Assembly: GCF_003334815.1 (NCBI RefSeq)
Contig: NZ_QOWO01000004.1
Source: Escherichia coli
GTDB lineage: Bacteria; Pseudomonadota; Gammaproteobacteria; Enterobacterales; Enterobacteriaceae
Length of the DNA stretch: 64,000 nucleotides
Direction: 5' to 3' (one strand)
A model generated the notes under the pieces. The model was not told where the DNA came from, did no database searches, and saw only the letters and a program-made list of their open reading frames with translations. The translations under genes were made by a program, and so were the position numbers. Shown in pieces: positions 17,213 to 51,544 of the stretch. Position 1 is the first letter of the stretch. Each line of letters opens with the position of its first letter.

Positions 17213-18362
17213 TACGTTTCACCTTCAGCAGTGCGATAAGCAAATCGAACAGCGCGTCGGTAAGCACCGCCAGAACAATTACCGGGATCACCCCCAGCAA
17301 CACTAAATCAATGGCGCTGCTTAGCAGCCCCTGGAAAACCAGCGCACCAAAACCGCCTGCGCCGATTAACGCCGCAATCACCGCCATACCTACAGTTTGC
17401 ACCATCACCACCCGCAGGCTGCGCAGAAATACCGGTAACGCCAGTGGTAACTGAACATGCAGGAATCGCCGCGCCCCGCTCATGCCCATCGCTCTGGCGC
17501 TCTCCAGCACATCGCGCGGGATCTGGTTCAAGCCGACTACCACGCCGCGCACCAGCGGCAGCAAGGCATAGAGCACCAGCGCAATCAGTGCGGGTGTCAT
17601 TCCGGTTCCTGCTATGCCGAGCTTCCCCAGCCACGGAAAGGCCGTCACCAGCGCGGCAAGCGGCGCAATCAACAGGCCAAAGAGCGCCACCGAAGGCACG
17701 GTCTGAATGACATTGAGCAGAGAAAAAATTGCCCCCTGCCGAGCAGTGGAAAAGTAGCACCAGATGCCCAACGGCACACCAATCACTAACGCAGGCAGCA
17801 CCGCACCAAACAGCAACGTCAGATGTTGTGCCAGCGCGTCGTCAAACACATCCTGACGGTTGGCGTATTCTTTCATTAGTGAGAGATCGTTAAGCGTGCC
17901 GGAGTACAGCAACCACAGCGGAATAATGGCAATCTGCATATGCAACAACCAGCGCCACAGCGGATGCGTGGAGATTCGGCGGATGGCATCGCTACAGGCC
18001 AGCAATGCCAGCGCCGCAGCCAGCCAGAAACCACTGCCGAGGCTGGTACGCGCCAGCGCACTGCCATTTTGCGCCAGTTGGGTCGCCGCCTTTCCAGCTC
18101 CCCACACCAGCAATACGAAGACGAATTGCGCCAGAATGAGTGCACAAATGCTGCCTTTTTTACCGGGAATAAAACAGGCCGTCAGCCAGGCGCAACCAAC
18201 GCCCACCAGCATCCAGATCGTTTGCGGCCACAGCTGCCAGAGATGACGCCCCTCACCCGAAACTAAACGATTAGGCGCGTAACTGATAAACGGCAGCGCC
18301 GCTGCGATTGCCGTCAGCAACAGCAGCAGCGCCAGAACAGGATTAATACGGAAATAAGTCAC
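17205..18362 (-). CDS. yehY: ABC transporter permease
   Basis: ORF track; apparent GTG start; overlaps the yehX start by 8 nt. Confidence 0.85.
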
Positions 18363-44624: not shown

Positions 44625-46616
44625 TCAGAAGCGATAATCCACTGCCATAAAGTAACGACGTCCGTCTTCGTTATAGCTGTAGTCGTCACGACTGAGATCC
44701 TTGTCGCCAAGGTTCAGCACGCCTGCGCGCAGTTTGACGTCTTTAGTCACCTGCCAGGCCGCGCCGGTATTCCAGATGGTATAACCGCCCGGTGTTTTAG
44801 CCGTCGCGCTGTCGGCGCGTTTCTGCCCGGTATAGTGCCCAGAAACATAGAATGACCAGTCTTCCAGCGCCAGCGGTTTCCAGTCCAGCGTACCGTTAGC
44901 AGTATGGAACGGCAGATCGGATAGCGGTTTGTTTTCGCCGTTGCTGACATCACGACCATCGTTGTAGGTGTAGTTGATCGACAGTTTCCATTCATCGTTG
45001 AACGGAATTTTCAGTTCGGTTTCCACGCCCTGAATACGAGCTTTGTTAACGTTGTAGTAGCTAAATACCGGTATGCGCCGTCCGTTAGCGCCCGTCTCAA
45101 AACCAACAAAGTTTTGGTAGCCCGGTGCAGCGTTGACGTCAGACGTACGGCTGATGCTGATACGATCTTTCACATCGTTACGGAAAACGGTAACGCTGGA
45201 TTCAACCCCTTCCAGCCAGCCTTCTTCACCCATGTAGTAAAGCCCCAGCTCCCAACTTTCGCTGGTTTCTGGTTTCAGATCCGGGCTACCCACAATCTTA
45301 CATGCGCCACGGCAGGAATTGCTCGTCCAGTCAGGGCTAAGTTGCAACAGAGAAGGTGCTTTAAATGCCGTCGCCCAGCCCCCTTTCACCGTTACGGTGT
45401 CGGTGGCGTTATAAACCAGGTAGGCACGCGGACTCCAGTGTTCACCGTAGGTTTCGTGATCGTCCATACGCACGCCGGTCGTCAGCGCCAGCGGCTCGAA
45501 GATCCGCCATTCATCTTCCACAAACAGCGCGTACTGGCTGGCAGACGTTTTGGAGCTGGTTCCCCCGGTCAGGTTCACCGCATCGCTAAGTTTGTCGTGA
45601 CGCCATTCACCGCCAACCGTGAGAAACTGATTAATCGCCGTCAGCGGCAACGTGTATTTGCCGTCGACCGTATTGCTTTCGGAAGTTATCGGGCTGCTGT
45701 TGCCAGGGTTTTTGTTCTCGACTTTCTCACCGTAGTATTTCAGTTCGCTGGTGCCGTAATCCCAACGCCCATTATGGCTGACGGAGTAGTTCTGGCGTTC
45801 CAGGCGGTTTTTGTCCAGCGAGTCGGAATCACGATCCTGACGGTCGAAACCGTATCCGGCAGTAAAATCGTGATTTTGATTCGGTGTCCAGGCAAATTCG
45901 ACATTGCCGTCGCGGCTGGAGAATCCTTCAATACGCGGCGTTTCTCCGGTATCGGTGGTCGTTGAGTTTTGCGGGTCATCCTTTTCACGTTTTGCCAGGC
46001 TGCCGTAAGCTTTCATTCCCAGCACACCATCAATTAATGGTCCACTGGTAAAGAACTGACCGTTATAGGTGTCACCGCGATCGCGATGTTCCTGAATGGT
46101 GGTATCGACGGTAACGGTACCCGACCATTTCTGACCGATTTTTTTGGTGATGATATTCACTACACCGCCGAGCGCATCGGAACCGTACAGCGACGACATC
46201 GGGCCACGGACCACTTCAATACGTTCGATGGAATCGACCGGGATCCAGTTCAGATCGAAATCATTGTGGCGGAAGACGGCATTGCGGGAGTTCACGCGTT
46301 TACCGTCGACGAGAATCAGGGTATAGCTGCTGTCCAGACCACGAATACTAACGCCCTTACGGTTATCCCCTTCGTTCGTCAGTTGTACGCCAGGCACTTC
46401 TTTGAGGACATCCTTCAGATTCTGTACCGGTTTTCGCTGCAGGTCTTCCTGGGTAATGACGCTGATACTGGCAGGTGCATCTTTAAGATTTTGTTCCACG
46501 GAAGATGCAGTGACAACCATCGTTTCGCCATCATCATCGACCGCTAACACAGGCCATGCACAAGAAATAGCGGACAAACACAGCCCGACCCGTACGAAAG
46601 GGTTCAACCTAAACAT
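44625..46616 (-). CDS. cirA: TonB-dependent catecholate siderophore / colicin I receptor (663 aa)
   Basis: Signal peptide; terminal aromatic residue (ends DYRF). Confidence 0.9.
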
Positions 46617-46814: not shown

Positions 46815-46862
46815 CCAAATGTTAAATTTTATATCCGCATGATTTGTCAGGGAAATGGAATT

Positions 46863-46890
46863 GAAAAAGCCCTCTCGGTTGAGAGGGCTT
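46863..46890 (-). terminator. Intrinsic terminator of lysP
   Basis: AAGCCCTCTC-AACC-GAGAGGGCTT followed by TTTTT on the minus strand. Confidence 0.75.
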
Positions 46891-46909
46891 AGCAAGGAAG
46901 GGAGGAAAC

Positions 46910-48379
46910 TTATTTCTTATCGTTCTGCGGGAACTTCATTTCGCTGTAGCGTACGAAGTGAGTTCCTTTAATCAGCTTGTAGCCGAACCAAATAATCAGG
47001 AACAGCGGGATACCAATATACGTTGCCGCTACGCCGCCCCAGTCAATAGTATCTTTCAGGAACGCTTCGTAGTTCTGGCCCAAAGTGATAATCAGACACA
47101 GAATGAATGCGAAGATCGGCCCCAGTGGGAAGAAACCTGAACGGTACGGCAGATCGTTAATGTCGTGTCCCTGCAATACGTAACCGCGACGGAAGCGATA
47201 GTGGCTAATGGCAATCCCCAGCCAGGCGATAAAACCCGTCATCCCGGAGGTGTTCAGCAGCCACAGGTATACCGTCTGGTTGCCAAACATGGAGGTCAGG
47301 AAGCACAGACCGGCAATCACCGTCGTCGCATACAGCGCATTACGCGGCACGCCACCACGCGACAGTTTAGCGAAAATGCGCGGCGCTTTACCGTCACACG
47401 CCAGGGTGTACAGCATACGAGTAGACGCATACATACCGGAGTTACCCGCTGACAGCACCGCCGTCAGAATAACTGCGTTCATCACCGCCGCCGCAGAGAG
47501 CAGACCCGCGTGCTGGAACACCAGGGTGAACGGACTAACGCTGATGTCTTTAACATCGTTACGCAGCAGGCTCGGATCGGTGTACGGAATAATCAGGCTG
47601 ATAATCAGGATCGCGAACACATAGAACAACAGGATTCGCCAGAACACCTGACGTACCGCGCGTGGAATGTTTTTCGCCGGATCTTCGGACTCGCCTGCAG
47701 CAATACCGATCAGCTCGGTTCCCTGGAAAGAGAAGCCGACAATCATAGCTACGCCGATCATCGCCGCAAAACCACCAGCAAACGGCGCTTCGCCGATTGT
47801 CCAGTTGCTCCAGCCCGCAGGCTGCGCGCCTTTGAAGATACCGATAATCATCAGCACGCCAACGATGATAAAGACAATAACTGTCGTGACTTTGATCAGT
47901 GAGAACCAGTATTCCGCTTCACCAAAGCCACGAACTGAGATGTAGTTCAGCAGGAAGATAACGCCGAGGAACAACGCACTCCAGATCCAGCCCGGTGTAT
48001 CCGGGAACCACCAGCTCATGACCAGCTGAGCTGCAACCAGGTCAACGGCGATAGTCACCGCCCAGTTGTACCAGTAGTTCCAGCCCAGCGCGAAGCCAAA
48101 GCCTTCTTCAACATAGTTCTGACCGTAAGTGGCAAACGAACCGGAAACCGGCATATATGCAGCCAGTTCACCGAGACTGGTCATCAGGAAGTAAACCATC
48201 AGGCCAATCAGCATATACGAGAGCAATGCCCCGCCCGGACCTGCCTGAGAAATCGTTGCGCCAGAGGCAACAAAAAGACCTGTACCGATGGAACCGCCAA
48301 TGGCAATCATCGTCAGGTGACGCGCCTTTAATTCACGGCGTAAGCCCGGCGCTTCTGTGGTTTTAGTTTCGGAAACCAT
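46910..48379 (-). CDS. lysP: Lysine-specific APC-family permease (489 aa)
   Basis: ORF track; synteny. Confidence 0.9.
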   Translation of the reverse strand: MVSETKTTEAPGLRRELKARHLTMIAIGGSIGTGLFVASGATISQAGPGGALLSYMLIGLMVYFLMTSLGELAAYMPVSGSFATYGQNYVEEGFGFALGWNYWYNWAVTIAVDLVAAQLVMSWWFPDTPGWIWSALFLGVIFLLNYISVRGFGEAEYWFSLIKVTTVIVFIIVGVLMIIGIFKGAQPAGWSNWTIGEAPFAGGFAAMIGVAMIVGFSFQGTELIGIAAGESEDPAKNIPRAVRQVFWRILLFYVFAILIISLIIPYTDPSLLRNDVKDISVSPFTLVFQHAGLLSAAAVMNAVILTAVLSAGNSGMYASTRMLYTLACDGKAPRIFAKLSRGGVPRNALYATTVIAGLCFLTSMFGNQTVYLWLLNTSGMTGFIAWLGIAISHYRFRRGYVLQGHDINDLPYRSGFFPLGPIFAFILCLIITLGQNYEAFLKDTIDWGGVAATYIGIPLFLIIWFGYKLIKGTHFVRYSEMKFPQNDKK

Positions 48380-48671
48380 ACAAAAATGCTATCCATCTTA
48401 AAAATGAGGCGCGATTGTAGCAGACGATTGGCAATCCTTCCGGCAGAAATACACGGTTATAAGACACCTTCATGATCGCCCAGGGATTATAAGTAAAGCA
48501 GCCAATCTCTTTTCTGGCGAATGCATGCTGAAGGCGCTGCGTCACGAAATCGACACAGCACCAGCATGTTCTTGTACAGCAACTTAACGCGGCACATTTG
48601 CGGGATCGCAATAGTCCAGAAAGCGCCGTAGCGCGTTGGAAAGGTGTTTTTGCCGATGATGTATACGCCAC
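48363..48671 (-). CDS. Possible small cysteine-rich protein; true start uncertain
   Basis: ORF track 102 aa with cluster [15 protein letters not shown]; overlaps the yeiE 3' end by 88 nt if the first ATG is used; an internal TTG would give ~82 aa. May correspond to yeiW, which I place here only from memory. Confidence 0.3.
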
Positions 48672-49465
48672 AACGTACGCATCAGGCGCGGCAGAGGGAC
48701 CGCAACTTCACTTAATGTGCCTGCCTGCAATTGATCTTCAATCACACGTCGCGACAGGCAACTAATTCCCAACCCATGACGCACCGCATGTTTGATTGCC
48801 TCGGAGTTACCTAATTCCATCGCCATCTCAAACTTCGGTAAATGTGACAGCAACAGATAATCGACAATCTCCCGCGTGCCGGAACCGCGTTCACGCAGGA
48901 TCCACGGCGCAGCGGCCAGCTGTTCTAAGGTGACCGGACCACGGGCCAACGGCGAAGTCGGCGCGGCGAAAACCACCAGCTCGTCTTCCAGCCACGGTTC
49001 AGAAATGATTTCAGTGCTGTGGCACGGTCCTTCAATAAAGCCAATATCAACGCGGAAATCCAGCACCGCTTGCATCACGTCCTGGCTATTCCCAACGCTA
49101 AGTTCAATCGGCAACTGCGGATAATCATGGCGATAACGGGCGATAACTGCAGGCAGAATGTAGTTACCGATGGTACTACTGGCATAGATACGAATCGCGC
49201 CGTTGTCTTCGCGAAACAGTTGTTCGATTTCAACCGCCTGTTCAAGCAATGCCAACGCACGCGGATAGAGCAGCCGCCCGTGTTCATTAACAACCAGTCT
49301 TTTCCCCACGCGATCAAACAGTTGCACGCCAAGCTGCCCTTCCAGGTCGGTCAAGGCTGCGCTCACTGCTGATTGCGACAACGCCAGCATCACCGACGCC
49401 TGGGTGGTTGATCCACTTTTCAATACTTCTGCAAAAACTTCCAACTGCCGGAGGGTGATGTGCAT
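48584..49465 (-). CDS. yeiE: LysR-family transcriptional regulator (293 aa)
   Basis: N-terminal LysR helix-turn-helix; divergent from yeiH. Confidence 0.85.
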
Positions 49466-49563: not shown

Positions 49564-50613
49564 ATGACGAATATCACCTTACAGAAACAACATCGTACAC
49601 TGTGGCATTTTATTCCGGGGTTAGCCCTGAGTGCAGTTATCACCGGGGTCGCCCTGTGGGGTGGTTCCATTCCCGCGGTTGCGGGTGCCGGGTTTAGTGC
49701 CCTCACCCTCGCAATCTTGTTGGGGATGGTTTTAGGCAACACCATCTATCCGCACATCTGGAAAAGCTGTGACGGTGGTGTGCTGTTTGCCAAGCAATAT
49801 TTATTACGTCTGGGTATCATTCTTTATGGCTTCCGTCTGACGTTCTCGCAAATTGCCGATGTCGGTATCAGTGGGATCATCATTGACGTGTTGACGCTGT
49901 CCAGTACCTTCCTGCTGGCTTGCTTCCTGGGGCAGAAAGTGTTTGGTCTGGATAAGCACACCAGCTGGTTGATCGGTGCCGGTAGCAGTATCTGTGGTGC
50001 TGCCGCGGTACTGGCGACTGAGCCGGTAGTGAAAGCGGAAGCCAGTAAAGTAACCGTGGCTGTTGCAACCGTTGTTATCTTCGGGACCGTCGCGATTTTC
50101 CTCTACCCGGCGATATATCCGCTGATGTCTCAATGGTTTAGTCCGGAAACTTTCGGTATCTACATTGGTTCTACTGTGCACGAAGTGGCGCAGGTGGTGG
50201 CGGCAGGTCATGCCATCAGCCCGGATGCGGAAAACGCAGCAGTTATTTCCAAAATGCTGCGCGTGATGATGCTGGCTCCGTTCCTCATCCTGCTGGCGGC
50301 GCGTGTTAAACAGCTGTCTGGGGCGAACAGCGGCGAGAAAAGCAAAATCACTATTCCGTGGTTTGCCATCTTGTTCATCGTAGTTGCCATCTTTAACTCG
50401 TTCCACCTGTTACCGCAGAGCGTGGTGAACATGCTGGTAACGCTGGATACCTTCCTGCTGGCAATGGCGATGGCGGCGCTGGGTCTGACCACTCACGTCA
50501 GCGCGCTGAAAAAAGCTGGGGCGAAACCTCTGCTGATGGCACTGGTACTGTTTGCCTGGCTGATTGTTGGTGGTGGTGCGATTAACTATGTGATTCAAAG
50601 CGTCATCGCATAA
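49564..50613 (+). CDS. yeiH: Inner-membrane protein (349 aa)
   Basis: ORF track; hydrophobic. Confidence 0.8.
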
Positions 50614-50686: not shown

Positions 50687-51544
50687 ATGAAATACATTGG
50701 AGCGCACGTTAGTGCTGCTGGCGGTCTGGCAAATGCCGCAATTCGCGCCGCCGAAATCGACGCAACCGCGTTTGCCTTGTTCACCAAAAACCAACGTCAG
50801 TGGCGTGCCGCACCGCTCACGACGCAAACCATCGATGAATTCAAAGCCGCCTGTGAAAAATATCACTACACATCGGCGCAAATTCTTCCCCACGACAGTT
50901 ATCTGATTAACCTCGGACATCCGGTCACTGAAGCTCTGGAAAAATCGCGCGATGCCTTTATAGATGAAATGCAGCGTTGCGAACAGCTGGGGCTTTCTTT
51001 GCTCAACTTCCACCCTGGCAGCCATCTGATGCAGATTTCAGAAGAGGATTGCCTTGCGCGTATTGCCGAATCCATCAACATTGCGCTGGATAAAACTCAA
51101 GGTGTGACAGCGGTGATAGAAAACACCGCCGGTCAGGGCAGTAACTTAGGGTTTAAATTCGAACATCTCGCGGCGATTATCGACGGCGTGGAAGATAAAT
51201 CCCGCGTCGGCGTCTGCATTGATACCTGCCATGCTTTCGCTGCCGGGTATGATTTGCGTACTCCAGCCGAATGCGAGAAAACATTCGCGGATTTTGCCCG
51301 TACTGTCGGCTTTAAGTATCTGCGCGGGATGCACCTTAACGATGCGAAAAGCACCTTTGGCAGCCGCGTTGACCGCCATCATAGCCTCGGTGAAGGCAAT
51401 ATCGGTCATGATGCGTTCCGCTGGATCATGCAGGACGACCGTTTCGACGGCATTCCGCTGATCCTCGAAACCATCAACCCGGATATCTGGGCAGAAGAGA
51501 TCGCCTGGCTGAAAGCGCAACAAACTGAAAAAGCGGTAGCCTGA
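50687..51544 (+). CDS. nfo: Endonuclease IV (285 aa)
   Basis: ORF track; size and synteny. Confidence 0.9.

Follow-up and report, generated by a model that had tools for sequence, protein, structure and literature searches.

A cysteine-rich open frame between yeiE and lysP of Escherichia coli is very probably a chance reading of a 3' hairpin and of the lysP control region

Transcription of lysP in Escherichia coli is described, in part of the published work on its regulation, as ArgP- and Lrp-dependent and lysine-repressed (Ruiz, Haneburger & Jung 2011). Binding of ArgP to the lysP promoter region is also on record in the literature. Two transcription starts of lysP were listed by Kim et al. 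2012 (PMC3415461, Table S1), one at 2246582 with 14 reads and one at 2246659 with 6 reads; these correspond to positions 48407 and 48484 of the window, i.e. the whole 64,000-nt stretch of E. coli DNA that was analysed (contig NZ_QOWO01000004.1). The control region in this stretch is that of the described E. coli system, adjoins the lysP start and holds both mapped starts. Its -10 hexamer is good and its -35 is poor, which is expected of an activator-dependent promoter. Upstream lies yeiE, and an open reading frame (ORF) with a dense group of cysteine codons extends from the 3' end of yeiE into lysP.

Three other known kinds of element resemble parts of this locus. The intrinsic terminators and 3' stem-loops share with it a stable GC-rich hairpin, which begins 13 nt past the stop of yeiE and is retained in Escherichia; however, the main hairpin has no U-tract directly after its stem, and only a weak second hairpin is followed by a U-rich tail. 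The spurious 'hypothetical protein' ORFs of older annotation pipelines are also similar, and no difference from the present ORF was noted: its calls are sporadic and inconsistent, from 56 to 168 aa with varying starts, carry no domains, and are limited to Escherichia/Shigella and one Cronobacter. The third is the 'putative metal-chelating domain-containing protein YeiW' of the MG1655 RefSeq annotation, which a preliminary description of this DNA offered as a possible identity. YeiW and the ORF are alike solely in their small size and several cysteines. The identity was rejected: yeiW (b4502) is a separate locus at MG1655 2265041-2265295, about 16 kb away and past the end of the window, and its sequence does not resemble that of the ORF (the best BLASTP match has E = 0.6 and spans 13 residues; no Pfam match for the ORF).

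The region corresponds to cirA-lysP-yeiE-yeiH-nfo of E. coli, and the 102-aa ORF to MG1655 2248516-2248824. The MG1655 annotation has no feature between lysP and yeiE, and among the RefSeq E. coli entries listed the ORF was not annotated. The DNA of the ORF region was found in all 5426 complete E. coli genomes (5426/5426). Much of the anatomy given in the preliminary description was borne out, including the minus-strand ORF itself (102 aa and a TAA stop), the cysteine cluster (residues 25-39), the 88-nt overlap with yeiE (48584..49465), and the in-frame TTG at 48611 that gives 82 aa. Two details were corrected. The first start is a GTG (48671..48669) and not an ATG, the earliest in-frame ATG being codon 67 (48473); and the cluster, said to be in the C-terminal region, occupies codons 26-39 in the N-terminal third. 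The ORF had been placed between lysP and yeiE with the overlap into yeiE recognised, but its overlap with the first 17 nt of lysP (ATG 48379) was missed. The features of the locus are collected in Table 1.

Table 1. Positions of the features at the yeiE-lysP junction, in coordinates of the window.
Feature	Position	Strand	Description
lysP (lysine:H+ symporter)	46910..48379	-	ORF stop codon lies 17 nt inside lysP
Mechanical ORF	48363..48671	-	102 codons from a GTG to a TAA stop 17 nt inside lysP; judged non-coding
Inner 36-codon frame from first ATG	48363..48473	-	on the minor long-leader transcript only; judged non-coding
lysP promoter/operator and 5' UTR	48380..48498	-	blocks of 12-28 invariant nt across Enterobacteriaceae, no indels, no codon periodicity
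Main lysP transcription start	48407	-	28-nt 5' UTR; -10 hexamer TACAAT at 48414-48419 (-12 to -7)
Two CTTATAA copies exactly 30 nt apart	48457-48463 and 48487-48493	-	within invariant blocks, at about -50 to -86 relative to the main start
Minor upstream lysP transcription start	48484	-	105-nt leader; TATAAT hexamer at 48486-48491
Small second hairpin GCCAG-N8-UUGGC with U-rich tail UGCUUUACUU	48501..48518	-	weak terminator-like site
Strong RNA hairpin, 12-bp core and outer stem	48519..48571	-	starts 13 nt after yeiE stop
Cysteine-cluster codons C26, C31, C32, C36, C38, C39	48555..48596	-	lie across the stop codon of yeiE and a spacer not conserved between genera
yeiE 3' end (LysR-type regulator), last 88 nt	48584..48671	-	ORF reads yeiE in a shifted frame

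The 102-codon ORF is very probably a chance open frame that translates four unrelated things, and no gene; what was observed directly is the anatomy, the hairpin, where the published transcription starts lie, and that conservation is not of the coding type. From 5' to 3' on the minus strand, the ORF first covers the 88 nt at the 3' end of yeiE, in a shifted frame, and then a spacer of low conservation that in Escherichia is marked above all by a strong GC/GU-rich hairpin shortly past the yeiE stop. The 5' arm of this hairpin, GCUGGUGCUGUGUCG, happens to read Cys-Trp-Cys-Cys-Val in the ORF frame, and the apparent cysteine cluster arises because these hairpin-arm codons combine with neighbouring TGC/TGT triplets. 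The third part is the control region of lysP, with a candidate ArgP operator (the two CTTATAA copies), an activator-type promoter (TACAAT -10, poor -35) and the 28-nt 5' UTR, and the fourth is the first 17 nt of lysP.

Conservation along the ORF was compared with that of the flanking genes in 68 Enterobacteriaceae. Both yeiE and lysP show wobble periodicity, whereas the ORF frame has no third-position dip. In the overlap with yeiE (48584..48671), codon position 1 of the ORF is the least conserved (0.57 vs 0.85 and 0.91), because it coincides with the wobble position of yeiE. Further downstream, identity is about 0.20 at all three ORF codon positions (48596-48501), and it is merely 0-30% over 48590-48500; in the lysP control region (48380-48498) it is 0.81/0.84/0.78 at positions 1/2/3. 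Within Escherichia, the pN/pS of the ORF frame is 0.4-0.9, as against 0.00-0.05 for yeiE and lysP, with the E. albertii values left out since a 1-nt indel misaligns the sequences. The same indel destroys the ORF frame in E. albertii, and strain E69 has an upstream stop by which it is closed; premature stops were also found in S. enterica arizonae, Pseudescherichia, Kluyvera, Franconibacter and the Enterobacter cloacae complex. Loss of the cysteines and interruption of the frame in close relatives, either of which the preliminary description had named as speaking against a protein, were both seen, the first within Escherichia and the second in E. albertii and many other relatives.

The cysteines themselves follow the spacing C-x4-CC-x3-C-x-CC, and each of C26, C31, C32 and C36 is substituted in at least one other Escherichia species. 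The intact cluster is restricted to E. coli; E. whittamii has C31R. Six-frame translation of the 64-kb window gave 3 occurrences of at least six Cys in stop-free 14-aa windows, and 8 occurrences of at least five. The two other clusters of at least six Cys, near 17947 and 14448 on the minus strand, are out of frame within long ORFs. A comparable cluster in a non-coding frame thus occurs about once per 20 kb, and the present one is no more than expected by chance. The cluster had been taken as suggestive of metal binding, and this is not supported, as its density is at the chance level for off-frame translation and its cysteines are unconserved within Escherichia. These indicate that cysteine density alone is not evidence for a metal-binding protein, since off-frame Cys-dense stretches are common in E. 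coli DNA.

Three of the six clustered Cys codons (in TGC TGG TGC TGT) sit in the 5' arm of the main hairpin, whose sequence ...CAUGCUGGUGCUGUGUCG supplies the ORF codons C36, W37, C38, C39 and V40. The 101-nt segment 48495-48595 contains the main hairpin as well as two smaller stems; its folding energy is -40.5 kcal/mol (z = -2.88), and none of 200 shuffles was as stable. All six Escherichia species retain the main hairpin (93% of cells paired), and its outer arms CATGCTG/CAGCATG were recovered as an inverted repeat. Within the 12-bp core, all four one-sided changes among Escherichia preserve pairing; a test on the six Escherichia sequences, which hold too little variation, found no statistical covariation against a shuffle control. 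The main hairpin is probably a terminator or a 3'-end stabiliser of yeiE. The Term-seq 3' ends in the supplement of Adams 2021 have no entry for yeiE or lysP. At this site downstream of yeiE, other genera have hairpins of a different kind or REP-like elements, and a hairpin is entirely missing from those whose intergenic region is 130 nt long. The appeal of the small-protein candidate, a false one that is removed by this analysis, came from a GC/GU-rich hairpin arm which reads Cys-Trp-Cys-Cys in one frame.

The lysP control region is conserved at the level of nucleotides. In this promoter part, compared across genera, pS is 0.175 vs 0.449 in lysP, and pN/pS is 0.90, 1.19 and 0.79 in the three frames vs 0.05 for lysP. 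A consensus promoter scan of 48200-48800 found no sigma-70 site, which fits an activator-dependent promoter. Judged from its sequence, CTTATAA-N23-CTTATAA is a candidate site for the LysR-type activator ArgP, and the invariant blocks may be the ArgP/Lrp contacts that give lysine-responsive transcription of lysP. The suggestion that the ORF might be part of the lysP regulatory leader holds for its 3' 40% (48498-48380), where both mapped starts and the conserved blocks are located. Even there the DNA is mostly promoter/operator and less a transcribed leader, and the main 5' UTR has only 28 nt; the suggestion does not apply to the cysteine stretch, which lies upstream of both starts and just 3' of yeiE. 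A peptide that seems conserved upstream of a gene may therefore be translated promoter/operator sequence, and pN/pS in three frames separated the two cases cleanly here.

The inner frame might alternatively be a translated upstream ORF (uORF). In this case the stretch from ATG 48473 to TAA 48363 would be translated on the minor 105-nt leader, and LysP translation would be modulated by termination at a site 17 nt into the lysP gene; if true, a translational layer would be added to the transcriptional control by ArgP/Lrp, tuning LysP synthesis. All 68 species have the ATG; 67 of them share a distance of 94 nt between it and the lysP ATG, and 50 have an open frame. The published minor start is 11 nt upstream of this ATG, which would place it on an mRNA. 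However, the frame is cut to 6-25 codons in the other 18 species, in at least five lineages, and is frameshifted in E. albertii; its pN/pS of 0.90 is like that of the other two frames (0.79-1.19), and the invariant runs take in every third codon position. The ATG lacks a Shine-Dalgarno sequence (-2.4 kcal/mol), the main start excludes it from the transcript, the minor start has only 6 reads, and the leader has no stable fold (z = +0.83). That the ATG does not vary is accounted for by its position inside an operator-like invariant block, and the uORF is considered very improbable.

A real protein is even harder to reconcile with the data. The ORF would then encode an Escherichia-specific Cys-rich protein of 82-102 aa, made from a read-through yeiE mRNA and binding metal via C-x4-CC-x3-C-x-CC, which is a highly improbable reading. 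It is favoured by the frame, which in E. coli is open and carries the cluster, with E. whittamii coming close, by the presence of the DNA in every complete E. coli genome, and by a few GenBank annotations that call the ORF. However, four of the clustered cysteines are substituted in sister Escherichia species, the frame is closed in strain E69 and shifted in E. albertii, the pN/pS is not that of a coding sequence, and the density of the cluster is matched by off-frame translation. E. coli has four SNPs from the GTG to the lysP ATG, and each of them alters an ORF residue; both of those inside yeiE are synonymous for YeiE, yet change the ORF (K25E, A27T). No start has a Shine-Dalgarno sequence, the anti-SD duplex energies being +0.5 kcal/mol for GTG 48671 and -2.4 kcal/mol for both TTG 48611 and ATG 48473. 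The GTG and TTG starts and the cysteine codons are upstream of both published lysP transcription starts, the ORF start precedes both lysP promoters, and the coding sequence would have to contain the strong hairpin.

Database searches gave a similar picture. The ORF product had zero matches in Pfam, NCBIfam and PDB sequences, so that neither a domain nor a structure match speaks for the protein, and RefSeq annotation of the ORF was likewise lacking. The BLASTP/HMM check proposed in the preliminary description returned no family match and self-locus 'hypothetical' calls alone, and these calls were also the only relatives when 5.8 billion proteins were searched. A call of the exact 102-aa product exists on 1 contig, as against at least 1000 contigs each for the exact YeiE and LysP sequences. 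Most database calls are a 60-aa version that starts at a GTG at 48545 and does not contain the cysteines. The small-protein surveys covered the supplement of Stringer et al. 2021, whose novel small-ORF table does not include lysP, yeiE or the ORF coordinates, the preprint text of Weaver et al. 2019, which does not mention them, and the 'Cryptic bacterial microproteome' supplements, in which lysP, yeiE and MKVSYN had no match. Very young lineage-specific proteins may be unconserved, and non-conservation alone is no proof that the ORF was never translated in E. coli.

In other bacteria, lysine transporters are known to be controlled by lysine riboswitches (Rfam RF00168). A structured RNA acting in cis within the leader of lysP, e.g. 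such a riboswitch or an attenuator, would agree with this and with the strong nucleotide conservation upstream of lysP, but it was rejected as largely refuted and almost certainly wrong: the intergenic region has no Rfam family match at E values up to 1, the main 5' UTR has just 28 nt, and the 115-nt long leader folds no better than shuffled sequences (z = +0.83; 163 of 200 shuffles fold as well). The conserved sequence is mostly upstream of the main lysP start, and it therefore acts as DNA. As a by-product of the analysis, the alignment delimits those blocks of the lysP control region that do not vary across Enterobacteriaceae.

The minus-strand ORF at 48363-48671 exists and has 102 codons, with the cysteine-cluster stretch (C26, C31, C32, C36, C38 and C39) at residues 25-39. 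As in the preliminary description, it shares 88 nt with the 3' end of yeiE, and an internal TTG at 48611 would give an 82-aa version. The first start was described as ATG; it is actually GTG, with no ATG until codon 67 (48473). The 3' end, absent from that description, lies 17 nt into lysP. This ORF is very probably spurious and superimposed on known or ordinary elements: translation would run through the yeiE 3' end, the hairpin that closely follows it, the promoter/operator of lysP and the start of that gene. The ORF list and the MG1655 annotation identify the window as E. coli chromosome (adding 2200153 to a window position gives the NC_000913.3 coordinate). The 451 bases around the ORF are single copy in 5426/5426 complete E. 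coli genomes (95-100% identity), and the RefSeq features there, among the rows listed, are yeiE and lysP only.

Features around the ORF between lysP and yeiE (window positions)
Feature	Position	Strand	Basis or remark
cirA	44625-46616	minus	ORF list and MG1655 annotation
lysP	46910-48379	minus	ORF list and MG1655 annotation
lysP TSS	48407	minus	28 nt upstream of ATG, 14 reads, Kim et al. 2012 (PMC3415461)
lysP TSS	48484	minus	105 nt upstream of ATG, 6 reads, Kim et al. 2012 (PMC3415461)
Second hairpin	48518-48501	minus	weak; the only one with a U-rich tail
Main hairpin	48571-48519	minus	begins 13 nt past yeiE stop; fold of 101-nt segment
yeiE	48584-49465	minus	ORF list and MG1655 annotation
yeiH	49564-50613	plus	ORF list and MG1655 annotation
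nfo	50687-51544	plus	ORF list and MG1655 annotation

The suggested identity with yeiW was ruled out, since b4502 is located at 2265041-2265295, 16 kb away and past the end of the window, and the sequences are unrelated. The ORF had no match in Pfam, NCBIfam or PDB. A search with the translation, as proposed earlier, returned only same-locus calls: the relatives among 5.8 billion proteins form 15 small clusters, all 'hypothetical', with disagreeing start positions and lengths. A call identical to the 102-aa product is found on a single contig, against at least 1000 each for exact copies of YeiE and LysP. The commonest call is a 60-aa version starting past the cysteines. Moreover, the cysteine density, taken earlier as a sign of metal binding, is not exceptional. 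The six-frame translation of the window contains three stop-free 14-residue windows with at least six cysteines; the other two, near ~17947 and ~14448 (both minus), lie out of frame within long ORFs and represent the chance baseline.

Conservation was analyzed in 80 yeiE loci of Enterobacteriaceae, one genome per species; in 70, yeiE is followed by lysP, and the ORF frame was read backward from the lysP start. The complete cysteine cluster was found in E. coli only. E. whittamii carries C31R, strain E69 combines C32G with a stop immediately ahead of C26, and C26, C31 or C36 is replaced in two more Escherichia species; in E. albertii the frame is destroyed by a 1-nt indel. The 68-species alignment shows the expected wobble pattern in yeiE and lysP, and 0-30% identity at 48590-48500. 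Identity in the spacer is about 0.20 at each of the three codon positions. In the yeiE overlap, codon position 1 of the ORF is the least conserved, as it coincides with the wobble position of yeiE. The promoter part, at 0.81, 0.84 and 0.78 for positions 1, 2 and 3, has no periodicity.

Within Escherichia, pN/pS was 0.4-0.9 for the intergenic part of the ORF frame and 0.00-0.05 for lysP and yeiE. Across genera, it was 0.90 for the ORF frame in the 94 nt upstream of lysP, 1.19 and 0.79 for the other two frames there, and 0.05 for lysP. Comparison with six other E. coli strains shows four SNPs in total from the GTG to the lysP ATG, all changing ORF residues (K25E, A27T, S30R and L47P); two of these lie in yeiE, and both are synonymous for YeiE. 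The small protein is therefore refuted on the very grounds named in the preliminary description, namely cysteines not conserved or a frame interrupted in close relatives.

Three of the six clustered cysteines can be traced to the hairpin after yeiE. The 101 nt past the yeiE stop fold at -40.5 kcal/mol (z = -2.88), and 0/200 shuffles fold as well. In the ORF frame, the 5' arm CAUGCUGGUGCUGUGUCG translates as C36-W37-C38-C39-V40, while C31 and C32 are in a small stem immediately upstream of the main hairpin, and C26 overlaps the yeiE codons AAT GTG. The hairpin is kept in 6/6 Escherichia species with 93% of cells paired, and within the 12-bp core pairing survives all four one-sided changes; the shuffle control across these six species gave no statistical support, the variation being too little. 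The spacer of other genera contains unrelated hairpins or REP-like elements, and genera with a 130-nt intergenic region have no spacer. The main stem has no U-tract, and no yeiE 3' end is mapped in the Term-seq supplement examined. From its fold and position, the main hairpin may be a yeiE terminator or 3'-end stabiliser. Its 5' arm also contains GCTGGTGC (48558-48565, minus), a 7/8 match to the Chi octamer GCTGGTGG; this is probably a coincidence. The Citrobacter koseri spacer (locus L009) has a long perfect hairpin and REP-like palindromes (GCCGGAUGGCGGCGUAAACGCCUUAUCCGGCCUAC).

The other earlier proposal, a lysP regulatory leader, stands in part: the lysP promoter/operator makes up the 3' half of the ORF, but the cysteine codons and the GTG and TTG starts lie upstream of both transcription starts reported for MG1655 lysP (Kim et al. 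2012, PMC3415461, Table S1). The start nearer to lysP has TACAAT at -12 to -7 and no good -35. The sequence between 48498 and the lysP ATG is highly conserved, with blocks of 12-28 invariant nucleotides, and 67/68 genomes are indel-free over 94 nt. Two CTTATAA copies, spaced exactly 30 nt, lie at about -50 to -86, within invariant blocks. According to the literature, the lysP promoter is bound by ArgP, a LysR-type regulator that responds to lysine; judged from sequence, the invariant blocks are candidate ArgP/Lrp sites.

The inner ATG (48473) might open a translated 36-codon upstream ORF closing 17 nt into lysP. It is invariant in 68/68 species, as expected within an operator-like block, and the minor lysP transcript would include it. 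However, the frame is truncated in 18/68 species of at least five lineages, pN/pS gives no coding signal, a Shine-Dalgarno sequence is absent, and the main lysP start is downstream, which make such translation highly improbable. A riboswitch-type leader was rejected because Rfam has no family match in this region and no stable fold was found for the long lysP leader.

Two predicted proteins from metagenome contigs (P0013 and P0014) have unrelated sequence fused to the last ~30 ORF residues, with the junction equivalent to about 48455; one carries Pfam PF05717, an IS66-family domain. These suggest that in some strains a mobile element has inserted between the candidate ArgP site and the -35 region of lysP.

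Several variations at the locus were also observed. No lysP was found within up to 2.5 kb downstream of yeiE in Kosakonia, Phytobacter, Pluralibacter, Dryocola and some others (L035-L037, L040, L046, L052, L059, L070, L072 and L077), and therefore the yeiE-lysP synteny is not universal. The intergenic region is ~1.15 kb in L020, L065 and L076 vs 130-260 nt; the insert in Citrobacter sp. R56 (L020) has two opposite-strand ORFs (162 and 156 aa) resembling small membrane proteins. E. coli CUVET21-147 (L082) has a 94-nt deletion in the 3' end of yeiE (equivalent to 48612-48705); its RefSeq yeiE, frameshifted and 885 nt long, continues through intergenic sequence to a point 107 nt short of lysP. 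In E. coli F11, AF19 and LI60C3 (L083-L085), lysP codon 2 (48375) is GTT>GGT, and the LysP N-terminus is MGSETK rather than MVSETK. Sub-threshold Rfam matches at the lysP stop and downstream (46853-46938, minus; Phe_leader 25 bits, suhB/mmgR 20 bits) most likely merely reflect the lysP terminator hairpin. A further start with 72 reads, at ~46967 (minus) in the 3' end of the lysP coding sequence, was assigned to cirA with a 351-nt 5' UTR (Kim et al. 2012, PMC3415461, Table S1).
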